Shown: positions 2,210-43,649 of the stretch, in pieces | Position numbering within the stretch: position 1 is the first letter of the stretch | Layout of the letters: each line of letters starts with the position of its first letter | IMG/VR virus record: IMGVR_UViG_3300001357_000001 | Span: 1-64,000 of that record | Length of the DNA stretch: 64,000 nt | Direction: 5' to 3' (one strand) | Origin: a virus | Taxonomy: Duplodnaviria > Heunggongvirae > Uroviricota > Caudoviricetes | Translations under genes and position numbers: made by a program | The notes under the pieces: generated by a model | What the model saw: only the letters and a program-made list of their open reading frames with translations | Told to the model about the DNA's origin: nothing | The model's database searches: none

Positions 2210-3184
2210 ATGAATGTACTTAGTTTATTTGACGGCATGAGCTGTGGACAAATAGCACTTAATAGATGTGGAATAAAATACGATAACTACTTTGCAAGTG
2301 AGATTGATAAATATGCGATAAAAGTAACACAAGCTAACTACCCAAACACAAAACAGCTTGGCAGTATTACAGAGCTTGACGGAACAAAACTTCCTAAAAT
2401 TGATGTAATGTTTGGTGGTAGCCCCTGCCAAAGTTTTAGTGTTGCAGGAGATGGTACTGGGTTTGGTGGTAAAAGTGGTTTATTTTGGGAATACGTAAGA
2501 ATATTAAAGGAAGTAAAGCCAACTTATTTTTTGCTCGAAAATGTAGTAATGAAAAAAGAATGGGAGCAGATTATTACCGATGCGGTAGGTGTAGAACCAA
2601 TATTAATTAACAGCAACTTGGTTAGTGGGCAAAATAGAAAACGCCTATATTGGACAAATATACCAAACGTAAAACAACCCATTGATAAGGGTATTTTGCT
2701 AAAAGATGTGCTACAGGACAATGTAGATGAAAAATACTTTTATAGTGAAAAGGCTATTAGTTACCTTGACCGAAATAAAATAAATAAGAGGTTTGCAAAC
2801 TACAGCGATAGCGAAAAAGCAAATTGCTTGACTGCTGTTTTTAGCAAAAGCCTACCTTATAATGTTTATGTTGACCAAGAAAAGAGTTATTGCTTGACAA
2901 GCAACTATGGTAATATGGCTTGCATTAACTACAATAAGGGACAAGGACAAATAGTGTTTGATAATAAAACTATTAGAAGATTAACACCTATTGAGTGTGA
3001 GAGATTGCAAACAGTGCCCGACAATTACACTAACCACGTAAGTAACACCCAAAGGTATAAGATGATTGGTAATGGATGGACGGTTGATGTAATTGTACAT
3101 ATTTTTAACCAAATGGCTGCGATAGCAGACAAAGAGGGGGAGGAAAAACTAATATTGCGACACAACAGCACCAATGTTGATTAA
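2210..3184 (+). CDS. DNA cytosine-5 methyltransferase (Dcm family)
   Basis: Motif I LFDGMSCG; motif IV GGSPCQSFSVAG; motif VI LLENV; C-terminal TRD plus motif IX-like QxGNG(W). Confidence 0.9.
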   Translation: MNVLSLFDGMSCGQIALNRCGIKYDNYFASEIDKYAIKVTQANYPNTKQLGSITELDGTKLPKIDVMFGGSPCQSFSVAGDGTGFGGKSGLFWEYVRILKEVKPTYFLLENVVMKKEWEQIITDAVGVEPILINSNLVSGQNRKRLYWTNIPNVKQPIDKGILLKDVLQDNVDEKYFYSEKAISYLDRNKINKRFANYSDSEKANCLTAVFSKSLPYNVYVDQEKSYCLTSNYGNMACINYNKGQGQIVFDNKTIRRLTPIECERLQTVPDNYTNHVSNTQRYKMIGNGWTVDVIVHIFNQMAAIADKEGEEKLILRHNSTNVD

Positions 3185-3297: not shown

Positions 3298-3390
3298 GCT
3301 AACGGTTGGGTGTATGAGAAGGTTTGCTTGTAGAAGTTTTCAAATTACCACAAATGTTGATAGCAAACTTTCTTATACACCTTGTTATGC
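3298..3390. repeat. attC-like imperfect palindromic element, copy 2, downstream of the Dcm gene
   Basis: GCTAACGGTTGGGTGTATGAGAAGGTTTGC ... GCAAACTTTCTTATACACCTTGTTATGC; arms complementary with two conserved mismatch positions. Confidence 0.55.
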
Positions 3391-3974: not shown

Positions 3975-4045
3975 ACTAAGGCATGGAGCATAACGGCTAT
4001 GGGTATGGAGTCGGTTTTTTACGGGTTTGAAACACTAAAATTAAA
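3975..4045. repeat. truncated copy of the palindromic element (left half only)
   Basis: GCATAACGGCTATGGGTATGG ... GTTTGAAACACTAA resembles the 5' half of the element at 651-778. Confidence 0.35.
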
Positions 4046-4048
4046 TAT

Positions 4049-4315
4049 ATGAATAAGGTAGATATAATTAGAAAGCACATAGGTGACGATGACTTTTACG
4101 ATATGAACGGAACATCAATGTTAACCAACATTTTGAACGCAATGGAAGAGTATAAGGAACAGGAAGTAAAAAACTGCTCTATACCCGATGTTAGCCAACA
4201 ACGTGAACAGTTAATTGATTTTGCTATTCGATTTGACGGTGGAAATACAAGAACAAATAGAAAGGCTTACGAGCAAGAAGTTGACGACTACCTAAAATCA
4301 ATTAATTGTGGCTAA
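4049..4315 (+). CDS. hypothetical protein
   Basis: ORF of 88 aa. Confidence 0.35.
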   Translation: MNKVDIIRKHIGDDDFYDMNGTSMLTNILNAMEEYKEQEVKNCSIPDVSQQREQLIDFAIRFDGGNTRTNRKAYEQEVDDYLKSINCG

Positions 4316-4352
4316 CTATTATATATAAAACTTAATATTTAAAATATTAATC

Positions 4353-5159
4353 ATGAGTAATTTAGCTGATAATTTTTTAATGATTTATATTGAAAAGTTA
4401 AAATATTTTAATTATTCTAAACATACTATTAGAGATTATTCGCATTATTTTGAAAAATTTTTGATTTATGTTAATAAATATCCTCAACATCTAACATCTA
4501 ATGATTTCGAGAATTATTTATTAAACTATAAATTTTCATCAGTTTCTCAACAAAATCAAATAATTAACGCATTAAAGTTTGGATATGAAAAAGTTTTAAA
4601 TAAAAAATATAATAAAATTGATTTTCAAAGACCAAGAACCGAGAAAAAAATACCACAAATAATTGATAAAGAATTTCTATTAAATAGAATACCAAAAATC
4701 AAAAATATTAAACATAAGACAATAATATCTTTAGCATTTAGTGTAGGATTAAGAGTTTCAGAAGTAATTAATTTAAAAATAAAAGATATTGATTCTAAAA
4801 GAATGATAATTAATATTTATCAAGGTAAGGGTAAAAAGGATAGAATTGTTCCGTTGTCAGAAAACATTTTAAATTTATTGAGAGAATATCATAAACAATA
4901 TAAGCCAAATGAATATTTATTTAATGGTCAAAAATTACAACAATATTCACCAGAAAGTTGTAATAAAATAGTAAAAAAATATTTAGGTAATGAATATCAT
5001 TTTCATTTACTTAGACATAGTTGTTTTACTACATTATTAGAATCAGGAACAGATTTAAGAATAATTCAAAAATTAGCTGGTCATTCATCAAGTAAAACTA
5101 CGGAAATTTATACTCATGTAAGCACTAATTTATTATCCAAAATTAATTTACCAATATAA
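4353..5159 (+). CDS. Tyrosine site-specific recombinase (XerC/D-like phage integrase family)
   Basis: C-terminal catalytic signature HLLRHSCFTTLLESGTDLRIIQKLAGHSSSKTTEIYTHV (HxxR ... Y); conserved Arg in the SVGLRVSE box. Confidence 0.85.
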   Translation: MSNLADNFLMIYIEKLKYFNYSKHTIRDYSHYFEKFLIYVNKYPQHLTSNDFENYLLNYKFSSVSQQNQIINALKFGYEKVLNKKYNKIDFQRPRTEKKIPQIIDKEFLLNRIPKIKNIKHKTIISLAFSVGLRVSEVINLKIKDIDSKRMIINIYQGKGKKDRIVPLSENILNLLREYHKQYKPNEYLFNGQKLQQYSPESCNKIVKKYLGNEYHFHLLRHSCFTTLLESGTDLRIIQKLAGHSSSKTTEIYTHVSTNLLSKINLPI

Positions 5160-5632: not shown

Positions 5633-5986
5633 ATGAGAATGTGGATGGTAGACCCAAAAATTTTATGTAATAAACACTTGCTTGGAGAACATGGTGAGAT
5701 TCATAAACACAGGCATAATTTCGTAAAACAACATAGTATTACGAAAAGAGTCTCACCTGTTGTTCAAATTCAACCATCGGCAATGCAAAGCAGACATGAT
5801 GAACTTGCAGTAGAAATGTTGAGAAGAAATATGAATCATAAGTCTCCTTTTAAGCAACCAGATATATCATATCTTCCAACAAATGAAAGGTCTGTTGTTG
5901 TTGATATACAGAACTCAATTAAGGATTTAAGTAATAGATGTTCTGAATGTGCTAAACGAATAAATAATATGAATTATGTGTTATAG
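5633..5986 (+). CDS. denV: Pyrimidine dimer DNA glycosylase (T4 endonuclease V / DenV-like)
   Basis: NKHLLGEHGEI and RHDELAVEMLRRNMN align with T4 EndoV DQHLMAEYREL and RQIELIAECLKRGFN. Confidence 0.5.
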   Translation: MRMWMVDPKILCNKHLLGEHGEIHKHRHNFVKQHSITKRVSPVVQIQPSAMQSRHDELAVEMLRRNMNHKSPFKQPDISYLPTNERSVVVDIQNSIKDLSNRCSECAKRINNMNYVL

Positions 5987-6200
5987 TGGTAGATGTAGAT
6001 GGGAAAATCATATGGGAGATTGTAGATTTCCTAGTAGTAAAAAAGTAACTGAAAAATATCCATTACCTGTTTGTGAAATACCTACATGTGAAGAAGAATG
6101 CACTGAAGAACATGAGAAGTTTCTTAACGAGGTCTATGATGATATTCAAAAAATATTAGAAGATGAAAAAAGAAGAGATAAAGAAAATAATAAAACCTGA
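5976..6200 (+). CDS. small Cys-rich (zinc-ribbon-like) acidic protein
   Basis: CRFPSS ... CEIPTCEEEC. Confidence 0.3.
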   Translation: MCYSGRCRWENHMGDCRFPSSKKVTEKYPLPVCEIPTCEEECTEEHEKFLNEVYDDIQKILEDEKRRDKENNKT

Positions 6201-27149: not shown

Positions 27150-27341
27150 AACTAAAAACAGTTAAATTTGATTTTAGTAAATGCAATAAAGAGCAGAAAA
27201 TGATGTTATATGAAGAATGTATTACATTATGTGCGTTAAGCACAACATGTTCTGCTGACCATAAAGAATGTGTTGCATTAATTTATTTAGAAGAAGACAC
27301 AAAGAATAATTAAAGTAATTCTGGACATTGTGTTATGTACA

Positions 27342-27758
27342 TTATTCCCTCCAGTTAGGAGGATTTTTACTATGTACATTGATATAGTGTTCATCAAGGT
27401 CTTCTAACATCTTAAAACATCTGTTCTTTAAAAGATTATATGGTCGATGTACATTACCATAATGGTCAAGCCATAACTTTTTACCTAATTCTGGTGCATG
27501 AGAATAATTCATTTTGTACATTTCAGCTAGTTCATCTTCAATAGCGAATGCTGGCATGGACAATCTACCGACATAATCAAGTACTTTTATAATTTCTTCA
27601 AAAATAGAAATGAAATCATTATCTGAAATCAATTTATTTGTTCTGACTATTTTACTAAGTCTTGCTTTTAATTTTTCAATAATATCTTCTGCTGTTGATA
27701 ATTGATTATCATGATTAGGAAGATTAAAATCTGTTTTAATTAATTCTACTTCTGGCAT
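27342..27758 (-). CDS. hypothetical protein
   Basis: 138 aa; first gene of the minus-strand block. Confidence 0.4.
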   Translation of the reverse strand: MPEVELIKTDFNLPNHDNQLSTAEDIIEKLKARLSKIVRTNKLISDNDFISIFEEIIKVLDYVGRLSMPAFAIEDELAEMYKMNYSHAPELGKKLWLDHYGNVHRPYNLLKNRCFKMLEDLDEHYINVHSKNPPNWRE

Positions 27759-27829
27759 GCATTATTATTTTGCTTTTACATTTTAATATTATTAAATATT
27801 TTCATGATTGTAAAAATAAATAATAATTT

Positions 27830-33351: not shown

Positions 33352-34551
33352 TTATAAATCTATTAATCTCGATTCAATTATTTTAAGTAATTCACTCATT
33401 GGACGTTCCTCATCGTTTTCACAATTAATTGCTTTTTCGATTGGAAGCTCGTTTTCTTGAATTTTTTTGATTTGTTTTTCAATTTCTTCAACTTCATAAT
33501 CAATATAATCGGATTCGAAATATGATTGTTCAATAATATCAATTTTCCTGTTTTCATATTTTGCAATTGCAAATGGAAAATATTCACACACTCTCATTTT
33601 GCTGTGGTCATAATCAGGAACTGCAACAACATTTGCAGGATTCACATAACATACAAGAACAGTACTATCATTATTTGCAAATGAATTAACGTAAACAGTT
33701 GCTCCGACATGTAAACCATTTGAACAATCTCTGCGGAAATCAGCATCACATTCTTTTCTGTTTTGTTTAACAGGAACACCTAATTCAATATGCATTTTTC
33801 GTGTATGCATGTCGGTAAAAACAGGAACATTCTTTTCTTCTTCTTCGGTACTGGAATTAAATATAGCATCGAATAATTCCTGAAGATTTCCAAGTATTTC
33901 AACACCTTTTTCTTTTTCATCCCATTTTTCAGCAGTACTCACTTTTGTGCTGTTGAAAGTATTGTCTTCAATATTTCTATACACAATGTGTTTCTTAGGA
34001 CTTTCTTTCCAAGTCTTTTTCACATGAAGATAACGATTACTAATGAATTCTGCAAATCTTGTTTCATCAGAGTCTTGGTCGTTTTTCTTATCATATACTG
34101 CTTTATAAACAACCATATAACCATTATCTGTCAATACGAAGTCATGTGTTTTAATGAAGTCAAAAAGTACTGTACGTATTCTCTTATCAGGATTTAACAT
34201 CAATAATTTCCAGAAGTTAATAATTGCATCTAAAGGATATTCATTTTCATGATATTCTTTAATTACTTCAACCAATGTTTCTGGAACAGGAGTATTGAAA
34301 CCCGCAAGATATACTTCACCTGTTTCAGGGTCGTTTTCAAGTCCTGCCATAATAGCAACACGTGTTTTTTCATTCAATAAACCAAGAACATTTTTTATGT
34401 TCTCGTCAGTTGGGTCTTCTTTTGCCTTTAAAGTCATTTTAAATAACTTATCAGCTTCTTCTGATGAACCACAGTTTTTCTGGCGAAGTTTGCCATTAAG
34501 ACTGATTTTCACCATGTTTCCGATTTTAATTACGTTAATGTCTTTTTTCAT
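33352..34551 (-). CDS. rIIB: rIIB-like protein
   Basis: LFDFIKTHDFVLTDNGYMVVYKAV, CSNGLHVGATVY and LVCYVNPANVVAVPDYDHSKMRVCEY resemble T4 rIIB C-terminal blocks, recalled from memory. Confidence 0.5.
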   Translation of the reverse strand: MKKDINVIKIGNMVKISLNGKLRQKNCGSSEEADKLFKMTLKAKEDPTDENIKNVLGLLNEKTRVAIMAGLENDPETGEVYLAGFNTPVPETLVEVIKEYHENEYPLDAIINFWKLLMLNPDKRIRTVLFDFIKTHDFVLTDNGYMVVYKAVYDKKNDQDSDETRFAEFISNRYLHVKKTWKESPKKHIVYRNIEDNTFNSTKVSTAEKWDEKEKGVEILGNLQELFDAIFNSSTEEEEKNVPVFTDMHTRKMHIELGVPVKQNRKECDADFRRDCSNGLHVGATVYVNSFANNDSTVLVCYVNPANVVAVPDYDHSKMRVCEYFPFAIAKYENRKIDIIEQSYFESDYIDYEVEEIEKQIKKIQENELPIEKAINCENDEERPMSELLKIIESRLIDL

Positions 34552-34574: not shown

Positions 34575-34604
34575 TTATACGATATTAAATTTAAAATGTT
34601 ACAA
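34575..34604 (-). promoter_or_regulatory. phage promoter-like motif upstream of rIIB
   Basis: reverse complement of TTATACGATATTAAATTTAAAATGTTACAA. Confidence 0.55.
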
Positions 34605-34746
34605 TTTATATTGGTAAATTAATCTTTGATAATAAATTTGTATTCACTTGTGTGTATATTTCAGTGGTTTTATATGAATATACTTATAATCAGTTAGTTT
34701 ACCCATTTTTGTAATACTTTTTATTAATATAACAATAAGTTAGGCT

Positions 34747-34887
34747 TCATTTGCCAACGCTCTTAAATATCTTTTTATACCATTTGTTTTCTTTTCTGCA
34801 TTCAGGGCAGCCACTTTTCCCACTTGGGGTTGTTGCGTATTTTCCGTGCTTTTTACAGTTATTCCATCTATAATTTCCTAATTTCAT
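34747..34887 (-). CDS. 46 aa zinc-ribbon protein (cassette ORF; not in the ORF track)
   Basis: MKLGNYRWNNCKKHGKY ... CPECRK; starts 31 nt after an attC-like GTTAGGC core. Confidence 0.35.
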   Translation of the reverse strand: MKLGNYRWNNCKKHGKYATTPSGKSGCPECRKENKWYKKIFKSVGK

Positions 34888-34918
34888 AATCTTGTTTTTA
34901 TCCCACCGCACAAAAACG

Positions 34919-35050
34919 AAAGCCTAACAATGTACATAGGTAATTTGCCGTTTTGTTTTGGTAGTTTAGTTTATAATTTAATCTTTATCTCGTTCTAGTT
35001 GCTTCGGTTCGTCAAGCAGGGGCAAACATACCCATGTACTCAACGTTAGG
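34919..35050. repeat. attC-like element A
   Basis: GCCTAAC-aatGTACATaGGTAaTTTGCC ... GGCAAAcaTACCcATGTACtcaac-GTTAGGC; sits between the stop at 35070 and the start at 34887. Confidence 0.6.
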
Positions 35051-35069
35051 CATAAAAATTCCCGCTTTG

Positions 35070-35339
35070 TTAGCGGTCATTGCCGAAAACATCATCTTTC
35101 CATTTTTCCCATTCATCGGAAACATCAGAATCATCGTGCACACCAGATAATATACAACCATATCCGTTATTGTAAAGAAAGTCTGGCAAAGGCAACGAAC
35201 CGCTAACAACAAATAAACGTAATAAAAGTTTACGTGCTTGTAATTCAGTGATTTCGCCCCTTTCGAGCCATTGTGCTACTTCTAAAATTTTGTCTTTCAT
35301 ATCTTTTACTACGTTTATTTGTGAACCGTTATGGTGCAT
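35070..35339 (-). CDS. hypothetical protein (cassette ORF)
   Basis: 89 aa, coupled to the ORF at 35339-35596. Confidence 0.4.
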   Translation of the reverse strand: MHHNGSQINVVKDMKDKILEVAQWLERGEITELQARKLLLRLFVVSGSLPLPDFLYNNGYGCILSGVHDDSDVSDEWEKWKDDVFGNDR

Positions 35340-35596
35340 TAAGGAATATCCAACTTAAATTTTACCTCCTTAATATCAATCCATCCATCATATTCGTCTG
35401 GTCTATGCCAGTTTTGAGAATTATCCTCTTGGAACATACCATCTTTATAAAACCCAAATCCTATCGTGAGTCCTTCGTTGCTTATAAGCATTACCCTTGT
35501 CATATTAACTGGGCGTTGTGTCATATCGTTCATAAAAAATAACGCACCATAACATTTTGTATAAATCAGTGGCGTTATGTGCTTAATTTTAACCAC
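35339..35596 (-). CDS. hypothetical protein (cassette ORF)
   Basis: 85 aa. Confidence 0.4.
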   Translation of the reverse strand: MVKIKHITPLIYTKCYGALFFMNDMTQRPVNMTRVMLISNEGLTIGFGFYKDGMFQEDNSQNWHRPDEYDGWIDIKEVKFKLDIP

Positions 35597-35880
35597 TTAG
35601 CTACTAAATTGCTTTTGTGCGGTTCGACAGTTAGTAGCTCCTAATCGCCACCGCTTCATACAATTTACCGTTATGCACAATTAAATTATTACTTATAGTG
35701 TTTATTATAGTATTCTTCACCTACTTGCTCTTTTAAGTATTCATCAGCGTCCATTCCATATAAATCATAGTCGGTCAATTTATCTGTGTTATTGTTCCAC
35801 ATACCAACAAAAGCAAGTATCAAGGCAAGTAATATTATTAAAGCTATTGTTATTCCTATCCATTCCATAATTTTAAAAGT

Positions 35881-36002
35881 ACCTAACAATGTGTATAAGC
35901 AATAGCCGTCAGGCGTTTTTACTATTGCAGTTGTTTAATTATTAATTTTGTTTCTATCTAGTTGGTTCGTGTAGGCTACTGCTCATACACTCGTCCGTTA
36001 GC
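35881..36002. repeat. attC-like element B
   Basis: ACCTAAC-aatGTGTATaAGCAaTAGCC ... GGCTActgCTcATACACtcgtcc-GTTAGCA; compensatory changes relative to element A preserve the hairpin; the 3' core overlaps the stop of the gene at 36005. Confidence 0.55.
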
Positions 36003-36004
36003 AT

Positions 36005-36361
36005 TCATTTGCCAACGCACAGCTTAAAGCAACTAAATTTTTTCCTGTGTTCATTTCCTTTTTCATCAATAAGCACATATCTTTTACGACCTCTCTTGCC
36101 TACGTAATCTACAATTTCGCACTCTCCTATGTTTTCAATTGTAGCCTTTTTTCCTACCAAATGCAATCCTCCTAAACTTTCACCTTTCATCGCATGTTTA
36201 ATATTACGTTTTGGTTGTCGCTTTTCAATTGAATTATAACATCCTTTCTGCATTGTTCTAGGATAGCCTACTGCTTCTCCAATATATTCACCTGTTTGTT
36301 CATCTAAGATACCATCAAGTATCATGTCTGCTATGTCTCCCATAATATTTAATTTTTGCAC
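36005..36361 (-). CDS. hypothetical protein (cassette ORF; true start probably the ATG at 36343)
   Basis: C-terminus KLCVGK is encoded by the same nucleotides (GCGTTGGCAAATGA) as the C-terminus of the 46 aa ORF. Confidence 0.4.
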   Translation of the reverse strand: MQKLNIMGDIADMILDGILDEQTGEYIGEAVGYPRTMQKGCYNSIEKRQPKRNIKHAMKGESLGGLHLVGKKATIENIGECEIVDYVGKRGRKRYVLIDEKGNEHRKKFSCFKLCVGK

Positions 36362-36380
36362 CGCCCACGCTCAAAACGAA

Positions 36381-36480
36381 ACGCTAACAAGCGGTCATAG
36401 TTAATAAAGCCAATTAAGTTTAGTTCGTTGTAGGTTGCGGTAGTGGGTGGCTTTACTAACCATACCGCAAGCCGTTAGGC
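36381..36480. repeat. attC-like element C
   Basis: CGCTAAC-aaGCGGTcATaGTTAaTAAAGCCA ... TGGCTTTAcTAACcATACCGCaagcc-GTTAGGC. Confidence 0.6.
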
Positions 36481-36490
36481 ACAATAAAAA

Positions 36491-36637
36491 TTACTGCTCC
36501 AACTCTTTTAGTTTAGCTTCATTTTCCTTAATCAACTTATCAAGTAAACCTTTCATTACTGGTGGTAGTTGTACCTGCGGTGCATTTAATAACTTTGCGA
36601 CTTCAATATTCATTTCTAATAATTCTTGTAGTTTCAT
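36491..36637 (-). CDS. 48 aa helical protein (cassette ORF; not in the ORF track)
   Basis: MKLQELLEMNIEVAKLLNAPQVQLPPVMKGLLDKLIKENEAKLKELEQ. Confidence 0.3.
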   Translation of the reverse strand: MKLQELLEMNIEVAKLLNAPQVQLPPVMKGLLDKLIKENEAKLKELEQ

Positions 36638-36810
36638 ATTCGTAATTTTTACAGATGCCTAACAGCAAGTATAAAACATGCCTGTCGTGCATCTAAGTTA
36701 ATATTTATGTTAATTTCAAATTAATTGTTTCAATTAAAGTTTGTGTTAGCACGTTTCATACTTGCGTACCGTTGTAGCTTAATTGACAGCTCGCCATCAC
36801 ACATGCTCCA

Positions 36811-37083
36811 TTAGCAACAAATAATTTTACTATATCCTTTTCCTCCATTAAGTGCATAAGGTATATTTTTACAACTGTGCTTATCATCGCAAACCAATTT
36901 TCCACTATAATCTCCATCTTCATCTTTTACAACAATCACTTCATAACCCCATTCACTTTTTAGTTTATCACCAACTAAAATTGGTTGCTTATTATCGTCA
37001 TAAATTCCCGTAAAATTATCATTTCCTAACAATGTATAAAGTTCATTTCTTTGGTCTTTTTGCTTATTATTTTCTGTACTCAT
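36811..37083 (-). CDS. hypothetical protein (cassette ORF)
   Basis: 90 aa. Confidence 0.4.
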   Translation of the reverse strand: MSTENNKQKDQRNELYTLLGNDNFTGIYDDNKQPILVGDKLKSEWGYEVIVVKDEDGDYSGKLVCDDKHSCKNIPYALNGGKGYSKIICC

Positions 37084-37730
37084 ATTTTCCTGTATTTTAA
37101 TTAAATTAGTTGCTATTTCAAAGTCGAAACGAAACCTTATATTAGTACGTTAGTGCGTGTTCCGTTACTACATTCAATATATTTTGAAGTAGTTCTAATT
37201 CGGTTTCTTTTCTTTCAAGGATGTTGTTTATATCAGTTCGTTTCCGTTCACATTCAGTTTTTGCTACTTCTCTATTGTAGTAAGAAACCTCTATTTCTAA
37301 TTCCTCAATTTTCTTTGATAAGTAATTTAGTTCGTGTTCCATATCCATAATTTTACAATTTCATATTACCATCCGTTATAAACAAATAAAATTATTCAGT
37401 TTTAGTTTTACCAATTTACACATATCAATAATTAGTGTCCAAGCATTTGTATATATTAATATACCGTCATCTTTTTGTTTGAATCTCATTCCTAATTTAC
37501 CTTTCGTTAATTTTTCTGGTTCTTTTAAGTCCATAATTTTATCAGATTTATAATATGGCATTAGGTAATTCACAAAAATCAGGTATATTAGGTGTTTTAT
37601 TATCTACACAAATTGAACTATTTGATTTTTCACAGATAAAACTGTAAAGCCATTTGTCTTTTTTACAATAAGGACAATCTGTACAATTTTTTATTGTTAA
37701 AGTAAGTTTTTTCATAATTATTAACGCCAC

Positions 37731-37841
37731 ATAACAATGTATATAAGGCATTGCCTCTGTGGTCTTTTTATATTTATAATTCTGTCCATTCTATCAAAGT
37801 CAGTGAAGGCAACGCCTCATATTATCAACATTTTCGTTAGA
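37731..37841. repeat. attC-like element E
   Basis: ACATAAC-aaTGTaTATAAGGCaTTGCCT ... AGGCAACGCCTCATATTATCAACAttttc-GTTAGAA. Confidence 0.5.
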
Positions 37842-37846
37842 AGTTT

Positions 37847-37999
37847 TTATTTTTGCCCACGCTCTTCAAAATACTCAACCAAAATAGTTTCTACCATATT
37901 ATTGAATGACGGTCTATTTTGTCTTTCCTTTTCTTTCTTAAGTTTATCAACTAACCAATCATTTTTGTCGGTTAGTTTTAATGATATTCGTTTAGACAT
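37847..37999 (-). CDS. ribbon-helix-helix (CopG/Arc-like) DNA-binding protein, 50 aa; not in the ORF track
   Basis: MSKRISLKLTDKNDWLVDKLKKEKERQNRPSFNNMVETILVEYFEERGQK; start overlaps the stop of the upstream gene by 8 nt. Confidence 0.45.
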   Translation of the reverse strand: MSKRISLKLTDKNDWLVDKLKKEKERQNRPSFNNMVETILVEYFEERGQK

Positions 38000-38435
38000 A
38001 TTGTTCTGATTTAATTCTTACTTCAATATCTGCAATTACAAAATCCCAACGTCTTTGGAACAAATCACCATTAGCACGTAATTCACCATAATAGTCTTTC
38101 ATATCATGTGCCATGTGTTCATCTCCAAATTGATAGTGGTCTAATTGAACACCAGCCAAAACATCATCAGTATTCCATTGTTCCCAATTTTTTCTAACAA
38201 TCTTTTCAAATTCATCGTTGTTTTCAGGGAGTGAAGTTCCTATTTCTTGAATGAACATATCCAACCAATATGGGACCATATGTGAACCTTCGTCATCCAA
38301 ATCCATTAATCTATATTCAGATAACTTCATTTCAAGTATGTTACAAATAAAGTCAAATCCGTTTACTCTTGTAATAACACCATCGTCATTTACATCAATT
38401 TCAGTTTCGCTAAATGGAAGTTTAAATGTTTTCAT
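37992..38435 (-). CDS. hypothetical protein, co-transcribed with the RHH gene; possible toxin-antitoxin-like pair
   Basis: 147 aa; a promoter variant TTGAAACA ... GACGTATAAAT lies upstream at 38450-38490. Confidence 0.4.
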   Translation of the reverse strand: MKTFKLPFSETEIDVNDDGVITRVNGFDFICNILEMKLSEYRLMDLDDEGSHMVPYWLDMFIQEIGTSLPENNDEFEKIVRKNWEQWNTDDVLAGVQLDHYQFGDEHMAHDMKDYYGELRANGDLFQRRWDFVIADIEVRIKSEQYV

Positions 38436-38582
38436 AATCTTATCGTTTTATTAATTTATACGTCAAAGGTAATACTTTTGTTTCAAATAAACAAATATTT
38501 TTTGAATTATTTTCCCTACCTAAAAAATAAAAACTTCTTTATTGCTTCGTATTGAAATTCAGGTAGATAAACCGCATCAGCC

Positions 38583-38710
38583 GATAACAAGGTGTATATG
38601 TAATGTGAGGTTCGGTGGTGTATTCAACATTTATACTTCTAATCAAGTTCTGTGGTTAAATCAGATGTAGTGTTTCAAATCTCACACTACATATACACCC
38701 AACCGTTGTG
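38583..38710. repeat. attC-like palindromic element, inverted copy of the 651-778 element
   Basis: reverse complement is about 90% identical to 657-785. Confidence 0.6.
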
Positions 38711-39223
38711 TGTAAGTGCTACATTTGTGCATTTAATGAAAGTTTCTGCAAGTTTGACCATAATTAAATATTTTCCGACCCTCTACCTCTACGCATATCA
38801 TGTATCTCCCATGCAATTGAAGCTGCAAGATTTTTTGAATAGGTGCATCCTGAAGTGTAGCATTTGTCTTTTCTTACATCTTTTTCAGCCTCTTCTTCCC
38901 ATTTTTTTTTTGTTGGATAAATCGGGCATTGTAAACATGGGCAAATAGTATATTCCCATTTTAATTCTTTCCTTTCAAAATTTATTGTATTTTCCATCTC
39001 AAACTTTCTTTATGTATGAATGATTTTTCAAAACAATATGGGCATTGCATCACATCGTCTTGCTCCCTCATTGTGTTTAAATCAAAAAATGCCATCGCAC
39101 AAAATATTTAATTATTACTCTATTCATTTTATCAACATTCTGCTAATTTGACCGCACCAGACACACAACACAAAATATAGTGCATAGCCGATTAAACATT
39201 TGTTTTTCATTGTCAACGCTCAC

Positions 39224-39514
39224 TTAACACCATCTTATTTTATTTTCAGTCAAAAAATAATGAGTTCTACATTTAAAAGTGTTGCCAATACTTGGTTTTA
39301 CTGTTATTTTTTCATCTTTGATATTAATTACCCATCCTCTATTCCTATTCAAATCGTGATGCAAATAAACTTCATTTCCACATCCACAAGGGCATTGATG
39401 TACTGTGTTAATTTCATCTCTCCACACTTTTACATATATAATTCCATATTCTTGTTCAGCTTTTACTGGCAAATCCCTTACTGCTTTATATTTTAATCCT
39501 GCTAATTTCTCCAT
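39224..39514 (-). CDS. small zinc-binding protein
   Basis: HQCPCGCGNEV ... CRTH. Confidence 0.35.
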   Translation of the reverse strand: MEKLAGLKYKAVRDLPVKAEQEYGIIYVKVWRDEINTVHQCPCGCGNEVYLHHDLNRNRGWVINIKDEKITVKPSIGNTFKCRTHYFLTENKIRWC

Positions 39515-40114
39515 CGCTTTAATTTTAAATACTAATCATATACCTAACCATTAGGCGTAATTGATACTATCTTCATCACAAAAACTTAATCCACCATCGT
39601 CAAATAAAACTATTGTATTACTTTTTGTTGCCCCATATCTGTGAAATTCACCTAATCTATCACCAACGATTACTCTATCACCTTGCTTAAAACAACTACG
39701 CCTAACAATATCTATATTGCATGGCTTTTCGGCTTTTGAATCTTTTGCACTCATATCAATATTTTTTTTAATTTGAAACTATGTGGCTTTGCTGTTGAAG
39801 CCACGACAACATAGATTAACCGTTAGCAAACATTTGGCTTACGTATTCTATTTAATATTTCCTCATTTGTTTGTAAATCGGAAGATGTAACATCATCACC
39901 TATAATAGCATCATCTCTACCTAAATTATATGCCCTCAATAAAAGTGGGTTAGGATTCCACATCTTTGCCCTACCATCAAGTTCATTATTAAACCCCCAC
40001 ATATAAGTTTCCAATAAAAGTTTGTTTTGTTCGTTCATATCTTTTATCTTTCAATTAAGTTTAGTTTTAAAATACTCACGGACGGTTATACTCGTCCGTT
40101 ATAAACAAATAAAA

Positions 40115-40354
40115 TTATTCGCTCAACCTCTTATAAGCTTTCATACATATCTTACAAGCATCTGCAACCAATAGCAGTTCGCCATCCATTTTATCAAATA
40201 GTTCAGCTTTGCCATCTTCATTTATTTGTCTAAACTTACCACATAGGGTAGTATTCCTTTTATTCCCTCCTGCACTCATTTTTGGAACGTAAGCATGTTG
40301 TTTGCTCATTCGGTGCGTATTTTCACTTTCTAAGGTTTTCCAAAGTACTTCCAT
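40115..40354 (-). CDS. hypothetical protein (cassette ORF flanked by exact repeats)
   Basis: 5' leader TTATAAATCTGATAAAATTATGG and 3' region CCGTTATAAACAAATAAAATTATTC are identical to those of the ORF at 37376-37573. Confidence 0.4.
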   Translation of the reverse strand: MEVLWKTLESENTHRMSKQHAYVPKMSAGGNKRNTTLCGKFRQINEDGKAELFDKMDGELLLVADACKICMKAYKRLSE

Positions 40355-40485
40355 AATTTTATCAGATTTATAACAAGCAACATAAGTAATTGCCTGTCAT
40401 GTTTATACCAAATTTTAAAGTTAATACTTGTATGGTCGCACTAACCATACCTACGAGCGTTAGGCAGAATAAAAAATTACAGTTG

Positions 40486-42774
40486 CTATGATAAATCCAT
40501 AGCAAGCTGTAAAATTGTTATTTGTTCTTCTTCTAAGTTTTCTGCATTCCAAGGAAGATTAAAATAACTTAATGTTTTAGTATTTTTCTTTTGCAATTCT
40601 TCAACTTCATCTACCCATTCACAAAATTCTTTTTGTTCTTTAGTAGGTTTTACTTTTTGAAAATCAAAATATTGACCTAATTCACTTCTATAATGTTGTA
40701 TTCTACTATCTCTAATATTATTAGGAATTGTATTGATAAAGGCATTAATTTTCTCAATCTTCTTTCCCCAATTATCATCAATTTTATTAATAAAACCTTT
40801 ACGATAAAAATCGGCAAGACCTTGATATTTTTCAACAACACTATATATTTGAAAATATTTCAATATCATGTCTTCTTTTCTCGGCAACATATAGGTAAAG
40901 AAATCTTTTATGTGTCTGGCATTCTTACAATACTTCAAATATTTAGTATTGTTTTTCGATACCTGTATAAACATAATGCTCTTTTTATCACTATCACTTT
41001 TCAAATTTTTTCTATAATCAATACGTCTGACAACAGCATCAGCATCAAATAAGAGTTTAAACAACCTAACTGCTTCATCAAGTTTATAATCATCATCAGT
41101 AGTACCATAGAAAATCGGCATATTATAATCAAATAAATTACCTAACTCAACTCTGTCTCTGGAATAACCGCCAATAAATTTAACAGGAATAGTCTTTTTT
41201 CTAAGTTCAGAACTAAGTTCGTTTTTACGTTTACGACTTTCAATAAATTCTTGTGGTACTTCTAATTCATCATAATCAATTCCATTCTCACGAATGATAT
41301 CGAAATATTCTTCTTGCATATCAATTAATTCCTGAACAAAAGGTAGTGTATTACCTTTGTCATCAACAATATCATCAAGATGTACATTGAATACGTCAGC
41401 AATATCAGAACGTGACCACTTACTAATTATTCTTTTCTTAATAATATAGTATGTCTCGAACTCACTCTTAAGATATGATTGCTTAATCATTTTACGATTA
41501 AACTCACCATCAACATATACTATGTTATTCTTATTTACAATCGTCTCATATCCACCTTCAAATCCGTCTCTACTTGCATAATAACCATATCTTCTTCTAG
41601 GCTTTTTACCATAGGTTTTTGCATCAAAGAAAAATCTAAACAATTGTTTGTCATTAGGCATTTTAGTAAATTGATACTTGAAGTTTGAGAAGTCAATATC
41701 TTTTTGAGTAATTAGATTTCCTACGTACATTGACTTGTTATTAGGAAAAACTAATTTACCGAAGTCATGCTTAACCTGAAAATATTCCTTTAATGTAACA
41801 ATGTCTTCATATTGCTTACTAATTAAAGTAATAATTTCATTCTTAGCTGCTTCTAACTTCTTCTTCAACATTTTGATTGTAGTCTCACTATAATCAAGAC
41901 TCTCACGACTAACTGTAACACCTATGTCACCTACTTCAAGTTTTAGTGCAATTGGTAGACTGTAATCGCTTGAATGTAAATCTAATGCATCATAATCAAT
42001 CGGATAAGCGACTTTACCTAAACACACGTGCATGTTGTTACTATAGTCATCACCACGAAATAAGAAGTTCTTACCTCTGATTATCAGATAATCATTAGTT
42101 AATGTATCATGTTGATATGTGTCTTCAAAACCTTCAAAAATGATGTTTTCGAAGTAATAAAGTTGTCTCACCATTTCTTTAGCAAAAGTGCTAATATCTT
42201 TTTCAAGTACTGGAACTTGGATTTCAGTACCATTTCTTTCTTCTGTTGGTTCTTCATGAAGTTTTGAAATTCGAGGTGTATGTTTACCTTCATATATATG
42301 ATATATGTATTTAATACCATTAAAAACAGTTATAATTTGATATGAATTATCATATTCTGCTTCACCTAAACCTATTTTACGTTTATATGCTAACGGGGTC
42401 TTCGAACCCAACCCAAACGCACCAATCTGGTCATTACTATCACGTTTAGTACTACTAAACATCACAGAAAATATTGTATCTATTCTTTGTGGTGATATTC
42501 CAACACCATAATCAATAAAACTAATATAATGAGTACCCGTTGTATTATCTTGATGTTTTTTTATTAAAACAGGGGCATTAGCTCCTGCTTCAACATGACT
42601 ATCAAAACAATTCGATGTTATCTCACGAACAACACTACCAATAGGATTACTATAAATGTTTTTTGAAAACATTTGAAAAATAATGCTTTGTGAATCATTA
42701 GATAATGTAATATCTTTTTCTTCGGTTGTAGTCAAAACATCAACATCGGAATAACTATTAATATCGTATTTCAT
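40486..42774 (-). CDS. rIIA: rIIA-like protein with an N-terminal GHKL (Hsp90/MORC-type) ATPase domain
   Basis: N box EITSNCFDS, G1 box FIDYGVGIS, G2 box IGAFGLGSKT; 762 aa, comparable in size to T4 rIIA. Confidence 0.55.
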   Translation of the reverse strand: MKYDINSYSDVDVLTTTEEKDITLSNDSQSIIFQMFSKNIYSNPIGSVVREITSNCFDSHVEAGANAPVLIKKHQDNTTGTHYISFIDYGVGISPQRIDTIFSVMFSSTKRDSNDQIGAFGLGSKTPLAYKRKIGLGEAEYDNSYQIITVFNGIKYIYHIYEGKHTPRISKLHEEPTEERNGTEIQVPVLEKDISTFAKEMVRQLYYFENIIFEGFEDTYQHDTLTNDYLIIRGKNFLFRGDDYSNNMHVCLGKVAYPIDYDALDLHSSDYSLPIALKLEVGDIGVTVSRESLDYSETTIKMLKKKLEAAKNEIITLISKQYEDIVTLKEYFQVKHDFGKLVFPNNKSMYVGNLITQKDIDFSNFKYQFTKMPNDKQLFRFFFDAKTYGKKPRRRYGYYASRDGFEGGYETIVNKNNIVYVDGEFNRKMIKQSYLKSEFETYYIIKKRIISKWSRSDIADVFNVHLDDIVDDKGNTLPFVQELIDMQEEYFDIIRENGIDYDELEVPQEFIESRKRKNELSSELRKKTIPVKFIGGYSRDRVELGNLFDYNMPIFYGTTDDDYKLDEAVRLFKLLFDADAVVRRIDYRKNLKSDSDKKSIMFIQVSKNNTKYLKYCKNARHIKDFFTYMLPRKEDMILKYFQIYSVVEKYQGLADFYRKGFINKIDDNWGKKIEKINAFINTIPNNIRDSRIQHYRSELGQYFDFQKVKPTKEQKEFCEWVDEVEELQKKNTKTLSYFNLPWNAENLEEEQITILQLAMDLS

Positions 42775-42827: not shown

Positions 42828-43649
42828 TCATTTAATCGTCTTTTTTATTGAAAATCCTTTACCACAGTCTTTACATTTAAATCTAATAGAATTATTTCTT
42901 TCACCATTTTTTAATATATTAGGACTATTACAAGTAGAACAACACATATTTCTATCTAAAACTTTATTAACTGGTTTATAATTTAAACATTTTTCTGCTT
43001 TTCTTTTTAATGATATAGTTGAATCATTATACATAAATTTAATTAATTTAAGTATTTCAGATGTTTTAATAAATGATAAATTATAATATGTTTGTTTACC
43101 TTTTCCTTTAGGTGGTTTTACAATAATTTTCCACGATTTCATATCATGTGTTTTCAAATAGGAATTAATTTCATATATAAATTCTTTAGCAACACAACTA
43201 AATTCGATGACTATTAAATTTCTTCTTTTGGCTCTTCTATAAACACTACCATCAGCATCAAAAAATCCTCTAATAAAATGTCGTATTAATTCTGATTTAA
43301 TATTCGGAAGTCTTAATTCATTTGCATTCTCATATGATTTTCTTGGGTATATACCATTTGATAATAAATCCTCATATAATTCTTTAGATGATTTTGAAAG
43401 ATATATTTGTTTTTTCGAATTTTCATTATATTTTGAATAATCGAAGTTACCTACATTAAAAAAAGGGAAATATTCTCTTAATTGATAAATTAAATCTTTA
43501 TCGATAATATTAACACTAATTTTGGTTAAATATCTTATTCTACCCGTCTTCTCCTTATATGTTGTTATTGTACCATCACCATAAAGAAAACCTAATAAAT
43601 ATGCTTTTTCCTGACTATCTATTCTTTTTAATTCATTATTGTACTTCAT
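42828..43649 (-). CDS. LAGLIDADG homing endonuclease (double motif) with a C-terminal zinc ribbon
   Basis: YLLGFLYGDGTI and IRGFFDADGSV; C-terminal CCSTCNSP ... CKDCGKGF. Confidence 0.75.
   Translation of the reverse strand: MKYNNELKRIDSQEKAYLLGFLYGDGTITTYKEKTGRIRYLTKISVNIIDKDLIYQLREYFPFFNVGNFDYSKYNENSKKQIYLSKSSKELYEDLLSNGIYPRKSYENANELRLPNIKSELIRHFIRGFFDADGSVYRRAKRRNLIVIEFSCVAKEFIYEINSYLKTHDMKSWKIIVKPPKGKGKQTYYNLSFIKTSEILKLIKFMYNDSTISLKRKAEKCLNYKPVNKVLDRNMCCSTCNSPNILKNGERNNSIRFKCKDCGKGFSIKKTIK

Follow-up and report, generated by a model that had tools for sequence, protein, structure and literature searches.

Hairpin sites, small-gene cassettes and a short Xer/IntI-like recombinase in a large phage genome: a comparison with integrons

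Integrons are generally regarded as a bacterial device, and the hyperplastic, ORFan-rich regions of phage genomes are usually put down to unexplained mosaicism. The T4-type phages provide one described case, in which small open reading frames (ORFs) in such regions are each bounded by a conserved stem-loop and are shuffled between phages; these promoter and stem-loop modules (PeSLs) are, according to what Arbiol et al. reportedly described in 2010, exchanged by homologous recombination. A second case was presented by Qi et al. (2023), who found integrons and 17 "CALINs" (clusters of attC sites lacking an integron-integrase) in phages, including the virulent Polaribacter phage P12002L (PMC9892861). 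Here we describe a 64,000-nucleotide stretch of viral DNA (positions 1 to 64,000 of IMG/VR record IMGVR_UViG_3300001357_000001; hereafter the window), which is AT-rich (28.8% G+C) and comes from a large marine phage of virulent type. It carries about ten full and three or four degenerate copies of an imperfect hairpin of 90–130 nt with the inverse cores YTAAC ... GTTAGGC, which bound small ORFs, and it encodes a Xer/IntI-like tyrosine recombinase of 268 amino acids. A sequence-only reading of the window had proposed attC-like recombination sites bounding small-gene cassettes, and this proposal survived every test that was run, including two set out beforehand as able to refute it; the added remark that such arrays would be unusual in a virulent phage was overstated, as attC clusters in virulent phages have been published (PMC9892861). 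We put at roughly 70% the probability that the hairpins serve as structure-specific recombination sites in an integron-like cassette system that the phage itself carries; recombination as such is inferred from comparison of sequences.

The sites resemble integron attC sites in their inverse cores, which match RYYYAAC and GTTRRRY, in an imperfect hairpin that keeps its structure while its sequence varies, in a seemingly unpaired, asymmetric spacer by the core helix, in a variable loop, in having one strand that folds better than the other, and in a crossover at GTT/AAC. As in integron arrays, small and mostly unknown ORFs are packed together and the array abuts a tyrosine recombinase gene via what is probably a simple site; as in the Vibrio cholerae repeats (VCRs), the site sequence is homogeneous within a lineage. 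Unlike attC sites, however, the phage sites have fixed G.T wobbles and no obvious extrahelical bases, and unlike integrons the phage carries its ORFs on the bottom-type strand, with the hairpin first and transcribed in its more stable form, a recombinase gene co-directional with the cassette ORFs, and a recombinase that lacks the IntI insertion and is closer to archaeal XerA. The enzyme shares with Xer/XerA an end-to-end structure alignment and the PF13495 and PF00589 domains, but it scores below their cut-offs, its gene lies beside hairpin-site arrays rather than a dif-like site, and its context suggests cassette exchange rather than dimer resolution. With the P12002L CALIN the window has the site family and DNA methyltransferase cassettes in common. 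The CALINs of Qi et al. were presented as "lacking an integron-integrase", captured parts usable by bacterial IntI1 (PMC9892861), whereas here there are a phage recombinase, an attI-like site, inverted polarity and natural turnover; PeSLs differ from the present sites in that the latter have fixed-triplet breakpoints, covarying stems and a dedicated recombinase. The locus works like an integron, and two features, the missing IntI insertion and the reversed ORF polarity, keep it out of the integron family in the strict sense. Among open-access papers and bioRxiv preprints we found none on a short phage recombinase as partner of such sites, on the attI-like site, on the inverted polarity, on the turnover between the Freya and Danklef phages described below, or on Bacteroidota arrays with a short recombinase.

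The hairpin family and its copies

Read on the gene-sense strand, a site consists of 5' (G)YTAACGG, 4–6 nt, an arm of 17–25 bp, a loop, the complementary arm, 0–3 nt and TTGTTAGGC 3'. The inverse cores form an outer helix of 7 bp (5' YTAACGG with TTGTTAG 3'), and the loop ranges from 4 to about 90 nt across sites. Conservation was assessed on the aligned arms of 39 non-redundant sites, which were drawn from the window, from phage contigs and from bacterial genomes; the loops of the long elements were replaced by GAAA. The results showed that 91% of cells were paired and that 13 of 17 upper-stem pairs had been altered on both sides; none of 500 shuffles reached any of these measures, and no slid register came close. 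The AAC and GTT triplets were invariant in 39/39 sites, and GCCTAAC and GTTAGGC, or variants of them, end every full copy. Both the integron-type cores and the stem-preserving compensatory changes that had been reported from the sequence alone are thereby borne out. The two conserved mismatch positions of that report are also real: on the sense strand they are fixed G.T(U) wobbles, and the opposite strand shows them as A.C mismatches; GU occurs in 34/39 sequences at both positions, and the outer helix holds two further G.T pairs. An asymmetric internal loop is conserved as well, the inner spacers after the two G.T pairs measuring mostly 5/0, 6/1 or 5/1 nt. Because of the wobbles, the sense strand has a folding advantage, which amounts to 3–9 kcal/mol as RNA in every copy, while as DNA it folds equally well or better in 7 of 10 copies. 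These results show a genuine family that conserves structure, not sequence.

The same picture emerged from counts in the window. For the 3' motif TATRYAYMTTGTTAKG, 5 occurrences were counted where chance predicts 0.02; the corresponding figures for the 5' motif CTAACGGNNNRNNKTAT are 4 and 0.04. With a covariance model built on the arms alone (R1), the short-loop copy was the single convincing match, and because the model cannot tolerate loops of 60–90 nt we adopted a custom structural finder, which requires AAC, an asymmetric spacer, a stem of at least 10 bp and GTT, and was calibrated on Markov-shuffled windows. This finder gave 10 matches at a score of at least 13 in the window, against 0.2 in the shuffled windows. 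The copies named by the sequence-only reading were recovered at or near their proposed positions, with motif counts and finder scores far above chance, although its list was incomplete: three sites were added (35201–35332; 39700–39826, which is weak; and 40370–40465, which is decayed). Two copies proposed as weak candidates, at 35591–35677 and 36657–36744, are genuine but had been given the wrong limits, which now stand at 35547–35674 and 36657–36775.

The copies fall into two arrays. Array 1 lies on the plus strand ahead of the recombinase gene and begins with a full site at 652–778 (GCTAAC/GG...TTGTTATG; here and below a slash after AAC marks the boundary), which has a finder score of 18.5, holds the stop codon of ORF 14–655 in its 5' core, and is near-identical to the site at 38582–38709 on the other strand. 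The second full site, at 3299–3390, has a short loop and stands 3' of the C5 DNA methyltransferase gene (2210–3184); it scored 41 bits with the covariance model (E 1.8e-9) and 19.5 with the finder, with z −4.0. The array possibly includes a weak, atypical site at 3990–4196 (finder score 10.5). The 5' core and arm of this site are clear, and its putative 3' arm falls within ORF 4049–4315, which starts in the loop; a 327-kb relative (L118) has a similar unit at 5928–6130. The element previously described as a truncated copy at 3975–4045 does hold a real 5' arm and is better seen as part of this possible longer element.

Array 2 (34600–40480) occupies the interval between an rIIA-like gene (40486–42774, minus) and an rIIB-like gene (33352–34551, minus), its conserved flanks, and contains about 18 small minus-strand ORFs. 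All of its sites are on the minus strand. The site at 34922–35049 has a bulged stem and a 3' leader that is 100% identical over 49 nt to phage LS06-2018-MD05. It is followed by the site at 35201–35332, with near-perfect 20-bp arms (95% complementary), an ORF start in its loop and a finder score of 19.5, and by that at 35547–35674, which scored 14.5 and gave z −4.6 for the sense strand and −1.9 for the antisense strand. The abundant "type I" is represented at 35881–36001 (finder 16.0). Further full sites are found at 36382–36478 (finder 15.0), at 36657–36775 (finder 16.5; z −3.1), at 37731–37841 (16.5 bits with the covariance model; z −3.8) and at 38582–38709, which has the longest stem, 25 pairs, and a finder score of 21.0. 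The weak site at 39700–39826 scored 10, near noise level; its 5' core overlaps the stop of ORF 39823–40038, and its 3' arm and core lie in ORF 39551–39754, whose start codon is in the loop. Just after rIIA, a degenerate site at 40370–40465 keeps the cores GCCTAAC ... TTGTTAT, and its arms are no longer complementary. At the other end of the array (34690–34745), the last core, GCCTAAC (34739–34745), is followed by the AT-rich TTATTGTTATATTAATAAAAAG, which resembles the attI-like leader described below, and no recombinase gene follows this terminal core in the window. All copies have the same polarity relative to transcription, as the two copies first placed at 651–778 and 3298–3390 are among plus-strand genes and the genes of array 2 are on the minus strand. 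At three sites (35201–35332, 39700–39826 and 3990–4196) translation of the downstream ORF begins within the loop and continues through the 3' arm and core, so that the site overlaps coding sequence.

Several other identities were considered for the hairpins. The hairpins are unlike intrinsic terminators, as the stems are AT-rich and at least 24 bp long, the loops are large, and the tails (GGCACAGT, GGCAACGT and others) are followed by a start codon about 10–20 nt on. The 34-codon ORF seen by eye in type I, from the ATG of GTGTATG to the TAG of TTGTTAG, was rejected as a small peptide, since in the other types the frame changes or meets an early stop, and indels distinguish the type I copies from one another. 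Promoter motifs looked for by eye were the Bacteroidota −33 TTTG / −7 TAnnTTTG and a sigma-70-like pair, TTGATT-17-TATTAA in the type I loop, and neither is conserved across types. A lambda boxA-like CGCTCTT on the plus strand is antisense to the genes. An IS200/IS605 element, a palindrome-associated transposable element (PATE) or a miniature inverted-repeat transposable element (MITE) was also rejected: there is no HUH transposase, the elements are confined to gene boundaries, and these boundaries are shared with a tyrosine recombinase system.

Cassette boundaries in related phages

Homologues of the window recombinase are annotated as "integrase" in the Polaribacter phages Freya and Leef and the Cellulophaga phage Ingeline, whose authors took the gene as a sign of potential lysogeny (PMC8776804). 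The ten Freya isolates range from 43,978 to 48,920 bp. Freya_10 differs from Freya_1 by an additional 4.9-kb block, which holds 12 small ORFs and lies directly ahead of the integrase gene, and the compared flanks are 100% and 99.8% identical. The left junction of this block reads ...TTGTTTACAAC/GGATATGG... and the right junction, about 45 nt ahead of the integrase ATG, reads ...TTGTTGCTAAC/ACCCCTATAAC..., while the single junction of Freya_1 is ...TTGTTTACAAC/ACCCCTATAAC. Freya_9 lacks exactly one unit, a hairpin with one ORF, from ACCAAC/ to GCTAAC/, and the two partners share AAC only. Freya_6 has other ORFs between the same two AAC positions. The sister species Danklef shares a two-ORF block of 1,169 bp at 99.6% identity, which starts at an AAC and ends 2 nt past the AAC of the next site. 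Taken together, six of six boundaries in Freya_1, Freya_6, Freya_9, Freya_10 and Danklef fall at the AAC core (GTT on the complement), resolved to about 3 nt. Integron integrases cut the core site at G/TT. Because the boundaries lie at AAC with as few as 3 nt shared, they point to site-specific rather than homologous exchange at AAC/GTT.

The rIIA–rIIB interval varies among direct relatives of the window as well, from 0.1 kb in L003 to 2.8 kb in L004, which holds members of the site family with unrelated ORFs, and 5.9 kb in the window. Thus the cassette-wise presence and absence for which relatives were to be checked exists, both in Freya and Danklef, where it coincides with the core triplet, and in the rIIA–rIIB interval.

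Repeats can also promote shuffling by ordinary homologous recombination, as T4-type PeSLs do, without a dedicated recombinase. The T4-like rIIA/rIIB neighbourhood with its many small ORFans in a hyperplastic interval fits such a process, and near-identical 120-nt type I copies in many phages could support homologous exchange. Yet breakpoints would then be expected to scatter over the 120 nt of homology, whereas the partners of the Freya_9 and Freya_1 crossovers share only AAC and have differing bases to either side of it; partners of different sequence type recombine; the covariation in the stems indicates selection for structure; and a recombinase gene is always adjacent. The elements also yielded no promoter consensus, although no formal test for Bacteroidota promoters was made. 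On balance we regard homologous exchange as quite unlikely to be the explanation, and site-specific recombination at the hairpin cores as the preferred one.

The unit that would move in phages runs from just after one AAC to the next, and comprises the hairpin, a leader of about 10–20 nt, an ORF and a short tail ending in YTAAC. It has this order because, on the sense strand, the cut falls at the hairpin's 5' end. Two comparisons of flanking sequence agree with these limits: the type II site always stands ahead of the same zinc-ribbon ORF while the upstream flanks diverge from TAAC on, and homologues of window ORF 14–655 are followed by different site types from AAC onward. A tblastn search with all cassette ORFs of the window against all fetched loci gave few matches and no clean cassette shared with another array. 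Compared with Pfam, only DUF6527 and the C5 methyltransferase were recognised among the cassette ORFs and nearly all others had no match; the ribbon-helix-helix (RHH) regulator that the sequence-only reading had placed among them finds no support there.

One further repeated motif was seen near the unit ends. GAGCGTKGRC(AAA) occurs 8 times against 1.4 expected, five of the matches being on the minus strand in array 2 (34753–34762, 36011–36020, 36363–36372, 37855–37864 and 39212–39221). In three or four cases it lies 5–20 nt ahead of a YTAAC core, where it encodes the C-terminal residues of ORFs that are otherwise unrelated (...SVGK*, ...CVGK*, ...ERGQK*, the asterisk being the stop), and once it directly follows a hairpin. 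The motif could mark a conserved 3' end of cassettes or be bound by an accessory factor.

The recombinase and its attI-like leader

The window recombinase gene (4353–5159, plus strand; PF13495 and PF00589) was found by tblastn with a site-adjacent recombinase from Sphingobacterium, at 40% identity. With the NCBIfam model for XerA/integron integrases the protein scored 182 bits against a cut-off of 220, and with integrase_gron 147 bits, in two stretches, against a cut-off of 265; it is under the NCBIfam XerC and XerD cut-offs as well. It aligns end to end with the archaeal XerA structures 4a8e and 5hxy, whereas against VchIntIA (2a3v) only its residues 7–179 and 217–259 align, which leaves 37 amino acids where IntIA has 85. 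Motifs resembling the catalytic signature (GLRVSE, GKGKKDR, HLLRHS, GHSS and IYTH) were picked out by eye, with no residue-level alignment. The search for an IntI-type integrase thus succeeded in that a Xer/IntI-like recombinase is present, and failed in that this enzyme has no IntI insertion and is below the integron-integrase cut-off; judged by its sequence, it is IntI-like and not a strict IntI. The exact protein is also encoded on a 348-kb metagenomic contig, and homologues are abundant, with 7,797 of 8,000 scored candidate proteins reaching E ≤ 1e-20, some of them on contigs of hundreds of kilobases such as the 327-kb relative L118.

A proposed attI-like site lies directly ahead of the gene (4309–4352, plus strand) and consists of a terminal core, GGCTAAC, and a conserved AT-rich leader of 35 nt (TATTATATATAAAACTTAAT...) that extends up to the start codon of the recombinase. 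Three metagenomic contigs (L117, L118 and L119), Freya and Ingeline likewise have this core and leader ahead of the recombinase. In the window, L118 and Freya, the site array ends in a YTAAC core 35–60 nt upstream of the recombinase start; in L117 and L119 the core and leader are present and the contig ends there. The cassette variation in Freya is anchored at this attI-like core. Two contigs with recombinases 84% identical to that of the window (L116 and L117) have the rIIB gene, 82% identical to the window rIIB, directly after the recombinase gene, and L118 shows rIIA, six sites with small ORFs, ACCTAAC, a similar leader and the recombinase, in this order. Therefore, in these relatives the recombinase resides in the interval that in the window holds array 2.

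Some related observations concern the recombinase locus in other genomes. In Ingeline_1 (L108 8880–8975) the recombinase and its attI-like core, TTGTTGCTAAC/ACCCACATAAC, are as in Freya and no hairpin sites were detected nearby, which makes Ingeline the equivalent of an empty integron (In0). The "integrase" of Danklef_1 is a 132-nt remnant (L120 5849–5980); identity with Freya resumes only inside the gene, and an opposite-strand ORF covers the 5' part, so that Danklef probably keeps its cassettes and has lost the enzyme. Three of four metagenomic contigs with close recombinase homologues (L116, L117 and L119) start 30–70 nt ahead of the gene, in one case precisely at TAAC, which looks like assembly breaks at a polymorphic junction. 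Genes or C-terminal gene fragments resembling TnpB/Cas12f occur in or near the variable regions of relatives (L004 14658–15017; L116 4407–6191; L019 about 5700–5900; sense coordinates), and the TnpB gene of L116 is paired with a serine resolvase (IS607-like); these are separate insertions.

Under the mechanism that we propose, the crossover would fall within the AAC triplet (GTT on the complement), where integron integrases cut G/TT, and the 268-amino-acid recombinase would be the likely enzyme catalysing the exchange. Its substrates would be folded single strands, and the terminal core with the AT-rich leader ahead of the recombinase start probably acts as attI. Array 2, which in this genome is apart from the recombinase gene, would be served in trans. 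With inverted ORFs the better-folding, bottom-type strand is the mRNA strand, so that the hairpins may have a secondary role in RNA.

Polarity, bacterial arrays and genome setting

The sequence-only reading had described the units as ORF followed by attC, as in bacterial integrons, and this order is reversed in phages, where the attC-like hairpin comes ahead of its ORF and the ORF lies on the bottom-type strand. The assignment of strands comes from the published phage attC bottom strands that were recombined by IntI1, which read TAACGC...TTGTTAT (PMC9892861). These bottom-strand oligonucleotides have the format of the phage sense strand, which thus corresponds to the attC bottom strand. On phage contigs an element nearly always extends from the stop codon of one ORF to about 10–20 nt before the next start. 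Comparison with the canonical attC of aadA7 likewise matches the phage sense strand to the attC bottom strand.

The family is widespread among phages. The type I site at 35881–36001 is 91% identical to an intergenic site of Cellulophaga phage phi18:3, with no match between flanking genes, and near-identical to dozens of IMG/VR contigs. Scanning IMG/VR with a 16-base 3' motif gave 79 loci, about 63 of them with a complete element and many with near-identical 120-nt type I copies; other copies have different interiors on the same basal stem, down to a minimal hairpin of 58 nt. Among the IMG/VR copies, 101/134 are followed by an ORF start on the same strand. In P12002L the structural finder returned 8 matches at a score of at least 13 and 10 at a score of at least 11, with 8 on the gene strand of the 29–48 kb region. 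The published site P12002L_attC1, which was called by HattCI (PMC9892861), is a short member of the window's family and lies between two methyltransferase genes in the same sense orientation.

Bacterial genomes gave a scan total of 24 loci, where by our own estimate about 17 exact matches are expected by chance, and 15 Bacteroidota loci were analysed as arrays. These loci, which include Tenacibaculum, Aquimarina, Maribacter, Sphingobacterium, Saprospiraceae and Lewinellaceae, show the same basal stem with other interiors and an alternation of gene and site. Their genes are on the strand opposite to the phage case in 25 of 32 instances, which is the canonical ORF-then-attC polarity. Three of the loci lie beside recombinase homologues, 279–293 amino acids long where complete (L098 and L103), the copy in L095 being cut by the contig end; the homologues of Tenacibaculum and Sphingobacterium show 44% and 40% identity. 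A two-gene cassette, composed of a Crp-like regulator, a peptide deformylase and a site, recurs at five loci in different contexts, with flanks that diverge right after CCGTT. According to the IntegronFinder 2.0 survey, complete integrons, meaning those with an IntI integrase, occur in Bacteroidetes proper only in Salinibacter ruber. In Sphingobacterium cellulitidis (L103 5523–5867) a 340-nt spacer separates the recombinase from the first cassette gene and contains the inverted cores GTTAGCAA and TTGCTAAC and a long GC-rich palindrome, GGCTCGGCGACTT...AAGTCGCCGAGCC; this spacer is possibly a bacterial attI region.

These polarity data bear on whether the hairpins are primarily RNA elements of polycistronic phage transcripts, that is, processing sites, mRNA stabilisers, terminator- or attenuator-like structures or devices for translation coupling, with plasticity being incidental. 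Such a function would account for the orientation of every phage copy with transcription, for the better folding of the sense strand as RNA through conserved G.U pairs, for the way in which a site fills the space from stop codon to about 12 nt short of the next start, and for the same-strand ORF starts counted above. Type I sequences also offer an alternative pairing of GCAATAG with CTATTGC and an inner GCCTAAC, which reads like a switch. In the Bacteroidota arrays, however, the sites are on the strand opposite to the genes, so that a function in sense RNA is not the conserved feature; the reversal of gene polarity between phages and bacteria argues for a conserved function at the DNA level. 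No U-tract follows the hairpin, and Rfam 15 at the gathering threshold gave no match in the window and only tRNAs in 12 bacterial loci. Nor would an RNA function explain the six AAC boundaries and the constant adjacency to a tyrosine recombinase gene. We therefore consider a primary RNA function unlikely, while in phages the hairpins may in addition act at the RNA level, a secondary function that could coexist with recombination. As to type I itself (L005–L083 and window 35881–36001), an inner GCCTAACGG lies directly ahead of the 3' arm, and the segment ACTGCAATAG is able to pair with the 3' arm in place of the 5' arm; these alternative structures could be nested or hybrid sites or an RNA switch.

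The arrays might also be passive fragments of host chromosomal arrays (CALINs), taken up by illegitimate recombination and acted on, if at all, by host integrases only. Qi et al. proposed a capture route of this kind for phage CALINs (PMC9892861), the same site family forms arrays in hosts of the same phylum, and P12002L and phi18:3 have sites without a homologous recombinase. Against this, the ORF polarity is opposite to the bacterial one, so that the phage arrays have not simply been copied from hosts; Pfam identifies hardly any of the cassette ORFs; the phage has its own recombinase and attI-like site; and there is turnover among isolates of one phage species. A purely passive origin is, in our estimation, very unlikely. 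By definition, a CALIN has two or more clustered attC sites and no integron-integrase in the vicinity; array 2, with at least eight full sites (34.7–40.5 kb) and the nearest recombinase gene 30 kb off, would qualify as one.

The preferred reading, an integron-like system run by the phage itself, also has findings that weigh against it. The strict co-orientation of sites and genes and the G.U-dependent stability of the mRNA strand would fit a function at the RNA level as well. P12002L and phi18:3 have sites but no homologue of the window recombinase; the tyrosine recombinase of phi18:3 that does adjoin a site, gp037, has no similarity to it. P12002L_attC1, the single clear member of the family to have been assayed by experiment, was the one site without verified IntI1 recombinants (PMC9892861). 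The direct relatives L003 and L004 have no individual cassette in common with the window, and array 2 lies on the opposite strand to the recombinase gene and 30 kb away from it. Bulged bases are missing from most stems, and extrahelical bases are lacking in most sites. The recombinase is without the region of about 48 amino acids that holds the IntI-specific insertion, and this insertion has been reported as essential to integron function (PMC8138268). Finally, the "circular" GenBank records of Freya (L110, L111 and L113–L115) are linearised at, or at most 3 nt from, AAC sites: the Freya_10 record ends ...ACAAC, Freya_8 begins right after ...ACCAAC, and Freya_1 begins 3 nt before the junction. 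Some Freya length variants could thus be breaks in assembly graphs and not clonal genomes, though even so alternative AAC junctions are implied. The branching of the Freya assembly graphs at AAC sites suggests mixed cassette arrangements within lysates.

A wider interpretation, which we hold at even odds, is that marine Bacteroidota phages, from 40-kb siphoviruses to one with the recombinase on a 348-kb contig, run an autonomous integron-like system, built from a minimal XerA-like integrase devoid of the IntI insertion, an attI-like site where the integrase gene starts, attC-like hairpins, and "backwards" cassettes in which the hairpin precedes the ORF and the bottom strand is transcribed. Phages would by this means gain, drop and exchange accessory genes, among them methyltransferase genes and perhaps genes for counter-defence, and together with the Bacteroidota chromosomal arrays the system would be a sister or ancestral lineage of the classical integrons. 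If this interpretation is true, the IntI insertion is not required for cassette recombination at hairpin sites. An integrase without that insertion may handle attC-like hairpins, and the locus bears on the origin of integrons, on how cassettes arise and on why IntI needs its insertion. A defined, enzyme-driven cassette mechanism is also suggested to shape the accessory-gene regions of abundant marine phages. The system is tractable at the bench, as Freya, Danklef and Ingeline are in culture with Polaribacter and Cellulophaga hosts and natural isolates differ by single cassettes. As regards annotation, pipelines of the IntegronFinder type would probably overlook such arrays or label them as CALINs, and at present the recombinase is taken as a sign of lysogeny (PMC8776804).

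As for the genome setting, an ARAGORN search of the window found no tRNA and no transfer-messenger RNA. Plus-strand genes extend as far as about 27 kb, and minus-strand genes take over from about 27.8 kb; transcription switches at about 27200–27800, and the two arrays lie on opposite sides of this region in opposite orientations. Since relatives keep the recombinase within the rIIA–rIIB array, the separation of array 2 from the recombinase in the window might come from a rearrangement. The window also encodes a LAGLIDADG homing endonuclease (42828–43649, minus), whose gene stands directly upstream of rIIA and is absent in the relatives L003 and L004.

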